Shown here: positions 15,756 through 32,062 of the stretch, piece by piece
Layout of the letters: each line of letters starts with the position of its first letter
Position numbering within the stretch: the first letter of the stretch is position 1
Assembly: GCA_947253595.1 (NCBI GenBank)
Contig: CAMXZR010000001.1
Span: 1 to 49,944, forward strand
Length of the DNA: 49,944 bases
Reading direction: 5' to 3'
Origin: an uncultured Olsenella sp.
GTDB lineage: Bacteria > Actinomycetota > Coriobacteriia > Coriobacteriales > Atopobiaceae
Notes under the pieces: generated by a model
What the model was told of the DNA's origin: nothing
Databases searched by the model: none
What the model saw: only the letters and a program-made list of their open reading frames with translations
Position numbers and translations under genes: made by a program

Positions 15756-15807
15756 GCCCAGGGGCTACGTGCCACAGGCAGGCCCAGGGACTACGTGCCA
15801 CGGGCAG
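15756..15807. repeat. 26-bp imperfect tandem repeat (2 copies)
   Basis: GCCCAGGGGCTACGTGCCACAGGCAG followed by GCCCAGGGACTACGTGCCACGGGCAG. Confidence 0.85.
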
Positions 15808-15868
15808 GCTCGAGGACCGGGCGCGACGCCAAGCCCGCCGGCTCCCAGCTTCTCTTGCTTCACGTCCC

Positions 15869-16055
15869 GTGCAAATCATTCCTGGAGTGCGCGGGACCTA
15901 TCTTTGACCTGTGGCGTTGTGGTCTGGCGCGCAAGCTGGCGGTAGTTTGCATGTGAGTCGCACGTCTTCGCGCGCACCGCAAGCGCAGTTTGCGCACGAG
16001 TTCTTTCTCACCAGGCAAAACGCAAAACCATGCGCAAGCTGGTGGGTTTTTGCGC
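15869..16055 (+). repeat. Left array of four GCGCA-N14-TGCGC palindromes (two paired elements)
   Basis: Units start at 15869, 15929, 15972, 16032; spacers 36/19/36 nt; cores TGACCTGTGGCG (15905) and TCACCAGGCAAAAC (16008). Confidence 0.85.
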
Positions 16056-16221: not shown

Positions 16222-17358
16222 ATGGAGATCACGTTCTCGCATACCACGGCACTGGCGCTTCTCAGGGCGCTCCGGCGGGGAGAGCTGTGCACGCGAAACG
16301 TCCAACGCACAGACTACCCGCCCACGCAGATACGTTTTGGACGGCACGACAATGCCGTCCTTCTCGAGGCGCTCATGAGACCTCTAGGCAACATCGCCTC
16401 CATACTTGTCGCGGAGGTGACGCCCTTGGAACACCTTGTCAGGTCTACAGGGGAGAGGAGCCATTCTCCCCTGTTGAGGGGGCACCTGAGCAGCGCGACG
16501 CTGCCACCCGGCTCGTTCCTCCGGCTCGCTGCCGACATAGCCGTCCCCTCTCCCGAGCTCGCCTTCGTGCAGATGGCCGAGGTCCTGACGGACGCCCAGC
16601 TCCTTGCCCTGGGCATGGAGCTCTGCGGCGGCTTCGCCTGCGACCCACTCGGTCCCTCGCACGGACCGGCACGCTATGGACTCTCTCCCCTGACGACCCA
16701 GGGCAGGATGCTCTGGTTTCTCTCGCATGCACGGGGTCTACGACTAAGCGGCCGCGCCGGGAGGGCGGCGGTGCTGGTCTCGCCCAACGCCTGGTCCCCC
16801 ATGGAGGCGGTGCTGGCGACCCTCCTGCTGCTCCCCGCTGACAAGGGAGGCTTTCCGATAGCTCCCCTCGCTCTGAACGCATGCGTCTTCCAGGGAAGCA
16901 CGCCCATGGCCAAGGCCTCACGTGTCCCGGACATACTGCTCGAGGGTGCGGACGTGGGCCTCAACTACGACGGCCAAGACCACCTTGCGCTTTCTTCCCT
17001 CGAGACTGCCGCGATGGGCGCGGCGTGTAACCCAGGCAGCGCCGAGCGCCAGAGCGTCGTTTGCCGACTGCGGGCCCAGATAAGGGAGAGATACGTCGAC
17101 GACCGTCGCCGGGACCGCGACCTCGCGAGCCAGGGACTCACCGTCCTTTCCGTCACGGCAGAGGACCTGCGGACCTCCGATTGCCTCGAGTTCCTTCTGC
17201 GACAGATCGTGGCATGCCTCGAGCGAGGCACGGGACGGCGGGAGGAACACGCCAGGTCAATGCTGGAGAATCAGTCGCTCCGCGTTGCGCGTGCGAGGGC
17301 CCTCGCCGAGCTCCGCCGCTGGCCTGCAGCGCCCACCCCCTGCGCAAGCCCTACGTAA
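16222..17358 (+). CDS. Hypothetical protein with C-terminal DUF559/Vsr-like endonuclease fold and AbiEi-like N-terminal region
   Basis: SPELAFVQMA...GMELCG, SPMEA..ATLLLLP...GG, VPDIL....GLNYDGQDH, DRRRDRDLASQGLTVLSVT; codon usage looks less GC3-biased than its neighbours. Confidence 0.7.
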   Translation: MEITFSHTTALALLRALRRGELCTRNVQRTDYPPTQIRFGRHDNAVLLEALMRPLGNIASILVAEVTPLEHLVRSTGERSHSPLLRGHLSSATLPPGSFLRLAADIAVPSPELAFVQMAEVLTDAQLLALGMELCGGFACDPLGPSHGPARYGLSPLTTQGRMLWFLSHARGLRLSGRAGRAAVLVSPNAWSPMEAVLATLLLLPADKGGFPIAPLALNACVFQGSTPMAKASRVPDILLEGADVGLNYDGQDHLALSSLETAAMGAACNPGSAERQSVVCRLRAQIRERYVDDRRRDRDLASQGLTVLSVTAEDLRTSDCLEFLLRQIVACLERGTGRREEHARSMLENQSLRVARARALAELRRWPAAPTPCASPT

Positions 17359-17529
17359 TGTGCGCGCGATTCACACCTGAGCTGCGCAAACTGCCAAAGC
17401 CGCGCAAAACTCCTGCAGCGTGCGCACCACGTTGCGCCCATCTTGCGCACGCTACGCGTGGTTTGCGTGCAACATCCTCGTGACCTGGGAAAACACAAGG
17501 CTCCCGCGCAAACCTTTTCTGGTCTGCGC
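17342..17529 (+). repeat. Right array of four GCGCA-N14-TGCGC palindromes (two paired elements)
   Basis: Units start at 17342, 17402, 17445, 17506; spacers 36/19/37 nt; cores TGAGCTGCGCAAAC (17378) and TGACCTGGGAAAAC (17481). Confidence 0.85.
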
Positions 17530-17596
17530 GGGAGCCAAGCTTCCCCGTAACCCGAGCCTCCCGCCCGGGTCGTCCGTCGACGAAGTCCGTCGAACC

Positions 17597-22707: not shown

Positions 22708-23151
22708 CTACCTCTCGCCGATCTTGGACAGGTTGTCCCGGATGGAGCCGAGCGCGCGGTACATCGCCGCCCGGTCGGACTCGTCGACGCCGCAGGCTGC
22801 CCGGGTCACGACGTCCTCGATAATCTGGTTGGCCTCGCGCATGGTGAGCAGACCCTTATCGGTCAGGCGGATGGGCGTCCTGTAGCGCGTGCCCCCTGTG
22901 GGGACGTCGATCTCCACGAAGCCGGCGCGCTCGAGCGCCGCCACCGTGCGTGATACCGCCGCGCGGTCGTTGCCGATCAGGCGGGCGAGCTCCGAGGCCG
23001 TGTGGCCCGCAGGCTCTTGCTCCAGGTAATAGAGACACATGACGTCCGTGCCCTTGAGGCCGAAGCGCCGCATCTCCCGCGCCTTGATGCGATTGACCTC
23101 CTTGCCCACCGACGAGACCAGCCCGACGAATTCCTCGAAACGCGAATCCAC
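22708..23151 (-). CDS. MarR family transcriptional regulator
   Basis: ASELARLIGNDRAAVSRTVAALERAG...IRLTDKG winged helix; GTG start after AGGAGGG. Confidence 0.9.
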   Translation of the reverse strand: MDSRFEEFVGLVSSVGKEVNRIKAREMRRFGLKGTDVMCLYYLEQEPAGHTASELARLIGNDRAAVSRTVAALERAGFVEIDVPTGGTRYRTPIRLTDKGLLTMREANQIIEDVVTRAACGVDESDRAAMYRALGSIRDNLSKIGER

Positions 23152-23253: not shown

Positions 23254-23337
23254 GCGCAAACCACAGACGTGCTGCGCGCGAGGGGACGTTTTCCCCGGTC
23301 GAAGAAAAATGGCGCGCACCCTGCTCACGGGCTGCGC
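23254..23337 (-). repeat. Solo paired-palindrome element (GCGCA-N14-TGCGC x2, 36-nt spacer)
   Basis: Units at 23254 and 23314; minus-strand core CGACCGGGGAAAAC. Confidence 0.85.
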
Positions 23338-23385
23338 GCCAAAACCACCTTTTCTGTCGCCTCCGCCTCCACCGCCGCCGGCTGA

Positions 23386-24204
23386 CTAGATGAGCGAGAG
23401 GACCTCCCTCTTGCAGTCGAGGAAGTCCTGCGTGAGCGCGAACTCCGCAACGCTCGTGCCCGAGACGGGCCGGGGCACCACGAGCTCGCCGACGATGCGA
23501 CTGGGCACGCCGGAGCGCGGGTCACCGCGAAGGACGTACACCCTGCTCGCCATTGTCACGGCCTCGTCCACGTCATGGGTGATGACTAGAGAGGCGATGC
23601 CCAGGTCGGCCGCCATGTCGCAGTACCAGCTGCGCAGGTCGACCCTCGTGAGGGCGTCCAGGGCGGAGAAGGGTTCGTCCAGGAGGGCGACATCGTTGCC
23701 CATGAGGTAGGTGCGAAGGAAGGCAGCGCGTTGGCGCATCCCTCCCGAGAGCTCGGAGGGCCAAAGGCGCTCCGTCCCCAGGAGCCCGAAGCGCTCAAAG
23801 AGGGGCAGGGCCCTCTCGCGCGCCTCGGTGCGGTGCGTCCCCGCGATGGTCAGGGGCAGGCAGACGTTGTCGATGATGCGCCTGTTCGGAAGGAGGAGGT
23901 CCTTCTGCAGCATGTAGCTCACGCGCCCGGGGACGCCCGTCACGTCCTCGCCGTGGAGGAGCACCCGCCCCGCGAGCGGCCGGGAGAGTCCCGACAGGGC
24001 ATGCAGGATGGTGGTCTTGCCGCAGCCGGACTTGCCCACCAGGCAGGCCACCTCGCCGGGACGCAGCACGAGGCTCACGTCCTCGGCCACGACGCGCCCC
24101 CCGCCGTCCCAAGAGAGGGCGAGCCCGCACGCCTCGAGGGCTGGCGCCTCTCCCCCGCCCGGAGGCACTGGGGACGCGAAGCCCGTCTTCCGCTCCCCCC
24201 GCAC
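23386..24204 (-). CDS. ABC ATP-binding protein (TauB/SsuB/ThiZ-like)
   Basis: GKSGCGKT, LSGGMRQR, LLDEPFSALD and ITHDVDEA motifs. Confidence 0.92.
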   Translation of the reverse strand: MRGERKTGFASPVPPGGGEAPALEACGLALSWDGGGRVVAEDVSLVLRPGEVACLVGKSGCGKTTILHALSGLSRPLAGRVLLHGEDVTGVPGRVSYMLQKDLLLPNRRIIDNVCLPLTIAGTHRTEARERALPLFERFGLLGTERLWPSELSGGMRQRAAFLRTYLMGNDVALLDEPFSALDALTRVDLRSWYCDMAADLGIASLVITHDVDEAVTMASRVYVLRGDPRSGVPSRIVGELVVPRPVSGTSVAEFALTQDFLDCKREVLSLI

Positions 24205-31977: not shown

Positions 31978-32062
31978 GCGCAGAACAACTCCAAAATGCG
32001 CGATAGACCGACAAAAGGCCAGTTCAGTTGAGCTATGCGCACATTTCGACTCCAGAATGCGC
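31978..32062 (-). repeat. Solo paired-palindrome element (N14 x2, 37-nt spacer)
   Basis: GCGCA-N14-TGCGC at 31978 and GCACA-N14-TGCGC at 32039; minus-strand core TGAACTGGCCTTTT. Confidence 0.75.

Follow-up and report, generated by a model that had tools for sequence, protein, structure and literature searches.

The intergenic region between an ABC-transporter operon and a marR-family gene of an uncultured Olsenella species contains two short palindromes separated by a 36-nt spacer. What is this pair, and what keeps it in place? The original prediction took it for a solitary, inverted copy of a dispersed, non-autonomous 84-nt unit analogous to a REPIN. We analyzed it within the window, the whole 49,944-nt stretch of DNA under study, and compared it with the rest of the 1.6-Mb source draft assembly (128 contigs, 66.8% G+C, 72.6% complete) and with related genomes. 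The predicted pattern is exact, with GCGCA at 23254–23258, N14, TGCGC at 23273–23277, N36, GCGCA at 23314–23318, N14, and TGCGC at 23333–23337. The core of the spacer lies on the minus strand, where the reverse complement of 23288–23301 reads CGACCGGGGAAAAC, and the core with which it had been compared, TGACCTGGGAAAAC, is present at 17481–17494. By its core, the 23254–23337 copy is oriented opposite to the copies at 15972, 17342, and 17445. The locus is made up of the following features.

22708–23151, minus strand: marR-family gene, downstream of the module (PF12802, PF01047)
23254–23277, minus strand: right palindrome, GCGCA-N14-TGCGC, with a 6-bp closing stem CGCGCA/TGCGCG (direct reading)
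23278–23313, minus strand: 36-nt spacer with the oriented core (core 23288–23301; family alignments)
23302–23309, minus strand: T-run TTTTTCTT directly 3′ of the 12-bp stem (direct reading, RNA fold)
23310–23341, minus strand: 12-bp GC-rich stem formed by the left palindrome and its flanks (12-nt arms 92% complementary; RNA and DNA folds)
23314–23337, minus strand: left palindrome in the orientation of the element, GCGCA-N14-TGCGC (direct reading, folds)
23386–24204, minus strand: ABC-transporter ATPase, last gene of its operon (PF00005; stop codon 23386–23388)

The ABC operon, also encoded on the minus strand, consists of a permease, an NMT1/THI5-like binding protein, and the ATPase. The operon ends at 23386 and marR starts at 23151, so that a transcript of this strand would reach the module 48 nt past the ATPase gene and marR 102 nt further on. 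The label 'thiamine' given to the operon in the original prediction is only as good as the Pfam name NMT1/THI5-like. The two loops had also been described as partly self-complementary. This holds for both palindromes at this locus (CCC/GGG and CAC/GTG) but not for the family as a whole, where the inward extension of the stem is 0.60 versus 0.58 in controls. No Rfam family matched at or above its gathering threshold anywhere in the window.

The pattern is far too frequent to have arisen by chance. Exact GCGCA-N14-TGCGC occurs eight times in the window, compared with 0.23 expected, and none of 100 shuffles reaches eight. The whole draft assembly contains 44 exact matches at a gap of 14, against 2–24 at every other gap from 0 to 40, and the reversed pattern, used as a control, has no match in any of 41 genomes. 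Together, the shuffles, the gap comparison, and the reversed-pattern control rule out a chance origin. Twelve pairs of exact palindromes in the source draft are closely spaced (58–61 nt), ten of them at exactly 60 nt, one at 58, and one at 61. This fixed spacing identifies the 84-nt pair, and not the single palindrome, as the repeated unit, in line with the original prediction; the spacer bears an oriented, conserved core.

The source draft contains 16 full-length modules, collected by allowing one mismatch per palindrome and then with a profile HMM built from oriented copies. Six are in the window, at 15869, 15972, 17342, 17445, 23254, and 31978, and four of these surround a gene of 378 amino acids. 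Besides the copy under study, the features are as follows.

15869–15952, plus strand: degenerate copy with three box mismatches, upstream of the 378-aa gene (nhmmer, 37 bits; orthologue in Olsenella phocaeensis at 389788)
15972–16055, plus strand: copy upstream of the 378-aa gene (exact-pattern and profile searches)
16222–17358, plus strand: 378-aa gene, predicted to be AbiEi-C-like in its N-terminal half and Vsr/DUF559-like in its C-terminal fold (AF2 model, VIA-align)
17342–17425, plus strand: copy that takes in the final codons of the 378-aa gene
17445–17529, plus strand: copy with a spacing of 61 and one box mismatch, bearing the core cited for comparison in the original prediction
31978–32062, minus strand: copy between divergent Band-7 and peptidase M20 genes

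Separately, at 15760–15812 of the window, the stop codon of a DUF1846 gene is directly followed by two tandem copies of a ~24-nt unit (...CTACGTGCCACRGGCAGGC...).

Outside the source draft, the family is abundant in one genome. Olsenella phocaeensis Marseille-P2936T, the sole other genome of the same genus in the comparison set, has about 26 modules on its 2.0-Mb contig 1, and a covariance model located two further modules on its small contigs. The exact 84-nt pattern was found in two of 41 relatives, namely the source draft and O. phocaeensis. Likewise, the covariance model, applied to 101 genomes from 38 genera of the taxonomic family, returned many strong matches in these two genomes only and one weak match in each of three further genomes. 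One of the weak matches (L154:1501-1601, 38.5 bits), from another genus of the taxonomic family, has the same geometry, with GTGCA...TGCAC and CACAA...TTGTG boxes and a CTGGG core between its two palindromes. Other genera may have related modules that are invisible to the present covariance model. A metagenome scan with the conserved end of the ABC ATPase gene, seeking further versions of the marR–ABC intergenic region, returned no matches. Among sequencing runs, no RNA run was listed as containing the sequence, and one DNA run contained a 0.07 share of its words. A literature search of limited scope turned up no account of such repeats in Coriobacteriia or of DUF559-linked palindromes. All 16 source modules and the roughly 26 on O. 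phocaeensis contig 1 lie outside Pfam-matched coding regions. The element is thus a member of a genus-restricted family of dispersed, intergenic paired-palindrome modules.

Single-register alignment defines the anatomy of the module. The first palindrome (GCGCA, 14-nt interior, TGCGC) is closed by a C before and a G after it, and the spacer and the second palindrome follow. The module spans ~84–100 nt and presents two 24-bp dyad-symmetric sites 60 nt apart. The spacer measures 36 nt (37 in some copies, 34 in one), starts with approximately GCCATTCTC, and 12 nt in exposes TGASCTGG followed by AAAAC or TTTTG. The family core, whose consensus is approximately ATTCTC-N3-TGASCTGG and then AAAAC or TTTTG, gives the module its orientation, and two subfamilies can be distinguished, AAAC/AAAAC and ATTYC/TTTTG. 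The 14-nt interiors vary freely, with 36% identity between non-orthologous copies. They share a symmetric preference, RW-YYR-N4-YRR-WY, which extends each half-site to approximately GCGCA-RW-YYR.

We then asked how the module might fold, using structural controls that all share one limitation, the non-independence of orthologous copies in the two genomes. The bases flanking the boxes extend the stems outward by a mean of 1.98 and 2.07 in the two palindromes, against 1.02 and 1.03 in controls (sd 0.16 and 0.14; 0 of 1000 shuffles), and they covary with a score of 0.218 versus 0.137 in shuffled alignments (0 of 500 shuffles) and 0.06–0.11 when the partner is slid. Inside the boxes, the 14-nt interior contains no covarying pair, and Watson–Crick counts equal the shuffled expectation at all seven pairs. 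An interior helix CCA/TGG was rejected, being complementary in the consensus only and devoid of covariation, as was a third hairpin around the spacer core, whose best stems score 3.63, against 3.54 for chimeric controls, 80 of 300 of which do as well. Each 24-mer thus appears, from its pattern of variation, to behave as a local hairpin or dyad at the DNA level. Mismatches in the stems are about equally often G-T (39) and A-C (44), so that nothing points to one strand being read as RNA.

Pairing between the two palindromes finds no support. Covariation between them is 0.129 versus 0.139 in shuffled alignments, and the complementarity of flank to flank and of spacer ends between palindromes does not exceed chance (784 and 963 of 1000 shuffles do at least as well). 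In a REPIN, as set out in PMC3116915, two REPs in inverted orientation and the spacer between them fold as one long hairpin. The proposed REPIN analogy is not supported in these defining points for the module, which is not an inverted doublet, does not form a single hairpin, lacks a GTAG/CGTC tag, and has no associated Y1 transposase. Interiors of the same module resemble each other in the direct sense (6.37 versus 5.15 of 14 positions; 0 of 1000 shuffles) and not in the inverted sense (5.41 versus 5.07 of 14; 136 of 1000 shuffles reach it), and the latter comparison, of the left palindrome with the reverse complement of the right, also argues against a MITE with terminal inverted repeats. A CRISPR array was discarded as well. 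The period of 24 + 36 nt is CRISPR-like, but the 'repeats' are alike at nothing more than their 5-bp ends, conservation falls on the 'spacer', and an array runs to two or three units.

A comparison with O. phocaeensis dates the family. For 15 of the 16 source copies, including 23254–23337, the syntenic O. phocaeensis interval also contains a copy, and the reverse comparison agrees wherever both flanks share one source contig. At the marR–ABC locus, the two intergenic regions can be aligned base by base over their full length, and the O. phocaeensis orthologue has one box mismatch, a differing interior in the terminator palindrome, and the same core. Around the one unmatched copy, on contig C115, the O. 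phocaeensis region is too diverged for an empty site or a target duplication to be read. This region (contig 1, ~1566150-1566350) has no family copy and contains several tandem units of ~16 nt (GAAGGCATAGAGAACG-like). Since orthologous copies are shared, the family was in place before the two species split. The comparison does not show the unit to be mobile: the copy under study and 14 of the 15 others occupy the same place in both genomes, and we came across no clean presence/absence site. According to the original prediction, an element fixed in distant relatives without the nuclease-like gene would favor an ordinary terminator or operator. We found fixity, but not under those terms, since the one syntenic relative also carries the 378-aa gene.

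Conservation within the module is uneven. Across the 15 orthologous pairs, identity is 95% in the boxes (286/300), 79% in the core (95/120), 70% in the rest of the spacer (272/390), and 58% in both the interiors (243/420) and the outer flanks (121/210), so that bases next to the boxes have drifted to near saturation between the species. These values come from one species pair and from copies detected via their boxes, a bias that matters little because 15 of the 16 copies were recovered. Synteny, together with 95% identity in the boxes against 58% in interiors and flanks, indicates an ancestral family under constraint, and nothing suggests that copies have moved recently. Alternatively, gene conversion between copies may have kept the boxes alike without any host function.

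Traces of the original spread are still legible. Idiosyncratic 24-mers, in a part of the module otherwise free to vary, recur in paralogous copies, some adjacent copies have identical palindromes, and two distant O. phocaeensis copies, at 1061751 and 1090478, share an identical 24-mer and half of the spacer. Just downstream of the O. phocaeensis orthologue of the 378-aa gene, a 43-nt unit (the 24-nt palindrome plus 19 bases) is repeated three times in tandem (contig 1, 388203–388331); this triplication is absent from 17340–17540 of the window.

The 378-aa gene is the one locus around which the family clusters, with two copies upstream and two downstream in both genomes, a finding in support of the original prediction; the end of this gene (16222–17358, plus strand) is 5.9 kb from the element under study. 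Its earlier designation as DUF559-like finds no footing in sequence profiles and some in the fold. The protein has no Pfam or NCBIfam match up to E 10 and no PDB sequence match, either alone or as a profile of 15 homologues. An AF2 model built from the alignment has a pLDDT of 83.2, and Foldseek gave weak matches only, the best being Vsr at E 0.6. Using VIA-align against 48,161 chains, we matched residues 190–338 to the DUF559-type endonuclease-like 3hrl_A (Z 6.8, rmsd 2.4, 94 aligned), residues 1–187 to AbiEi (6y8q_A, Z 6.8), and the model also to Vsr (1cw0_A, Z 6.4), all Z scores within the range that the tool rates as middling. The predicted fold therefore resembles DUF559/Vsr-like endonucleases with AbiEi-like domains, from which the protein differs in having no profile match, and 'nuclease-like' is a reasonable reading at the level of the fold and no further. 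Among 15 aligned proteins of this family, the motifs SPEL, ELCG, NAWSP-EA, RVPD, and NYD(G) are invariant or nearly so. DUF559/Vsr-type proteins have an acidic residue at the position before DG, which here reads N in all 15 (NYDG).

Could this protein move the modules? A REPIN-like non-autonomous element, with the 84-nt pair mobilized in trans by the single-copy AbiEi/Vsr-like protein, would explain why doublets are the unit, why paralogous copies have loops in common, and why the flanks covary in the strand-symmetric manner expected of ssDNA hairpins. Copies on both sides of one gene recall the REPs that flank RAYT genes, as described in PMC3116915 and PMC3733652; the predicted Vsr/DUF559-like fold would suit such a role, and the family and the 378-aa orthologue share their taxonomic range. 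We nevertheless regard this explanation as unlikely. Transposition leaves box conservation at fixed loci unexplained, 15 of 16 copies are syntenic with no clean presence/absence site, and the doublet is neither inverted nor folded into a single hairpin. Homologues of the protein at 32–40% identity occur across Atopobiaceae and other Coriobacteriia, but 20 of their loci in other taxa contain no palindromes or comparable flanking repeat family, only scattered two-copy hairpin boxes, and the four paralogues in the source draft are on contigs without family copies. Also against this explanation, the position at which the nuclease motif would have an acidic residue reads N in all 15 aligned proteins. 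PF01797, the Y1 transposase, has no match in the 72.6% complete source draft and one in O. phocaeensis (1389483–1389839), whose 3.4-kb locus contains no family copy.

More speculative still, the paired palindromes may be ssDNA hairpin substrates of the AbiEi/Vsr-fold protein whose gene they bracket, a PD-(D/E)XK-type keeper of repeats later co-opted by the host, as in the marR terminator. We consider this very unlikely. If true, an enzyme of PD-(D/E)XK type, and not a Y1 transposase, would be keeping vertically inherited repeats in an actinobacterial lineage, and if the bracketed gene is indeed the partner, the family would represent a second, independent route to a REPIN-like symbiosis.

Among known repeats, the module is, by analogy, most like a BIME or REP dimer, and may be described as a REP/BIME-like variant with a putative binding partner. 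The E. coli BIME consists of two REPs and a linker that binds a host factor. Our family shares with the BIMEs and REP doublets of Enterobacteria the paired short extragenic palindromes at a fixed distance, the conserved oriented linker, the dispersal among unrelated housekeeping genes, the small clusters and local tandem reiterations, and single copies that can act as terminators. It differs in having only about 16–28 copies per genome, far below classical REP families, freely varying interiors within nearly invariant 5-bp boxes, copies conserved in place between species, copies between divergent genes as often as chance would give, and a home in Coriobacteriia. The 24-nt palindromes fit the general definition of a REP as an imperfect, repeated, extragenic palindrome of 20–40 nt, and REP dimers with conserved 20–100-bp spacers are described in a REP survey (PMC3733652). 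The REP super-families of that survey are marked by a GTAG or CGTC tag that stays unpaired beside the stem-loop, at one of its ends. Neither tag is present around 78 palindromes of our family, which have T/S/S/C before GCGCA and G/S/S/A after TGCGC, so the family is not a member of the tagged REP super-families. With REPIN–RAYT systems, as portrayed in PMC3116915, it shares the doublet as unit, a flanked single-copy gene, and vertical, lineage-restricted inheritance, and differs in that the flanked gene is not a Y1 transposase and that nothing hints at recent movement. Palindromes dispersed between genes have been charted thoroughly in Proteobacteria and scarcely in Actinomycetota; the word Actinobacteria is missing from the main text of the survey (PMC3733652).

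The genes next to the copies have little in common. They include clpX, tatD, ribonucleotide reductase (nrd), selA, dnaX, ligA, hisS, ahpC, queA, phosphoglucomutase (pgm), a response regulator, and others. With Pfam-checked neighbors, the 16 source copies divide into six between co-directional genes and pointing with transcription, two between co-directional genes and pointing against it, four between convergent genes, three between divergent genes, and one of unclear context. Crude ORF calls in both genomes give 14 co-directional with transcription, 6 against, 10 convergent, and 13 divergent. An operator of a transcription-factor regulon was rejected, as the neighbors span proteolysis, replication, tRNA charging, selenium, transport, and cell wall, and four of the 16 source copies lie between convergent genes. 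The context of the copies is the footprint neither of a specific regulon nor of terminators alone. The cumulative GC skew of O. phocaeensis contig 1, on which an analysis by replication strand would draw, has no clear shape; the contig is a scaffold with many gaps.

The copy under study has a further trait. On the minus strand, from 23341 to 23310, the left palindrome and its flanks fold as RNA into the 12-bp GC-rich stem, followed by TTTTTCTT; the stem and the subsequent UUUUUCUU are positioned 44 nt after the stop codon of the ABC ATPase. The O. phocaeensis orthologue has the same terminator shape with a T-rich tail. A consensus terminator scan did not call the 23254 hairpin, owing to the internal mismatch in its stem. 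The 23254 copy thus looks like a family copy shaped into an intrinsic terminator of the ABC operon, a function suggested by its fold and conservation. It resembles intrinsic terminators in its GC-rich stem and T-run (23302–23341, minus strand) downstream of a stop codon. The family at large does not, since the T-run is missing in 38 of 41 copies, and a terminator has no use for the second palindrome or the core. At least five Ts in the 10 nt after the left palindrome are found only in the 23254 copy, its O. phocaeensis orthologue, and 15964, and the 12-bp stem with T-run is restricted to the first two.

Many REPs have been proposed to act at the RNA level, as terminators, 3′-end protectors, or processing sites, and the hairpins of the whole family could serve transcripts in these ways. 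The terminator shape kept in the sister species, the covarying stem extensions, and the orientation of modules with transcription in 14 of 20 co-directional pairs by crude calls (six of eight in the Pfam-checked source draft) would all agree. As an account of the family, this is quite unlikely: G-U is not above A-C in the stems (39 versus 44), a T-run follows the hairpin in three of 41 copies only, a 6-bp stem with a 14-nt loop is weak, three of 16 source copies lie between divergent genes, two of the eight co-directional ones point against transcription, and no Rfam family matches.

Taken together, the evidence leads us to favor, with even confidence, a joint explanation in which the module is an ancestral, selectively maintained double dyad that acts at the DNA level as a putative platform for a host protein, and in which the 23254 copy was co-opted as a terminator. 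The family would have spread by duplication in the common ancestor of the source organism and O. phocaeensis, with copies in place since. Selection keeps the boxes, the spacing, and the core, as the species comparison indicates. In the manner of a BIME, the module would be a recognition platform. A candidate protein would read the GCGCA/TGCGC dyads, either in duplex form or folded into short hairpins, and the core would have a reader as well. Beyond this, the 23254 copy would have evolved into an intrinsic terminator for the ABC operon, upstream of marR. Some results sit less easily with a platform. Flank complementarity beyond chance points to single-stranded hairpins and not to plain duplex recognition, selection for RNA hairpins could also yield it, and four of 16 loci differ between the genomes by indels or by a copy-bounded gene swap, which would fit a role in recombination.

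The largest of these differences is a 29-kb block of metabolic genes in O. phocaeensis (contig 1, 1061848–1090478) between two direct copies that share an identical palindrome. It encodes an oxidoreductase, PTA, a thiolase-like protein, PucR/LysR regulators, and an MFS transporter, with no integrase or recombinase among its 27 ORFs. Source contig C114 joins the outer flanks of the block across a single copy, and the block was not found elsewhere in the source draft. A 4.5-kb O. phocaeensis block at copies contains a PIN-domain gene. An ahpC-like gene is on opposite sides of a hisS / Na-H antiporter block in source contig C61 and in O. phocaeensis (756800–761700), where a short remnant-like match occupies the other position and family copies are found at the borders.

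Such arrangements would be expected if the modules were recombination sites, bordering gene segments that come, go, or change places through site-specific or repeat-mediated events. O. phocaeensis segments of 29 kb, 4.5 kb, and 1.2 kb lie beside or between direct copies where the source has one copy, ahpC changes sides of hisS with copies at the borders, and the 378-aa gene is itself bracketed by copies. We judge this highly improbable as the main role of the family, given plain collinearity at 11 of 16 loci and the lack of a recombinase in or beside the 29-kb segment. Indels may be as common in intergenic regions free of copies, and joins across repeats in a 128-contig draft may be wrong, so the segment differences at copies are a lead and not a finding.

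The family accounts for otherwise puzzling conserved intergenic blocks and marks several differences in gene content between the two genomes. Its anatomy is clean and countable, a pair of dyads in a fixed 60-nt register with an oriented core between them, and it is present in the cultivable type strain of O. phocaeensis. Because the boxes are 95% identical in an intergenic background of ~58%, the family allows a direct test of host-serving versus selfish retention. As a minor observation, two of the 44 exact GCGCA-N14-TGCGC matches in the source draft (C9:22510 and C45:11008) have tRNA T-arm-like interiors and are probably chance members of that set; the match on C45 is 30 nt away from a tblastn hit to a 20-aa fragment of the 378-aa protein (E 0.012).
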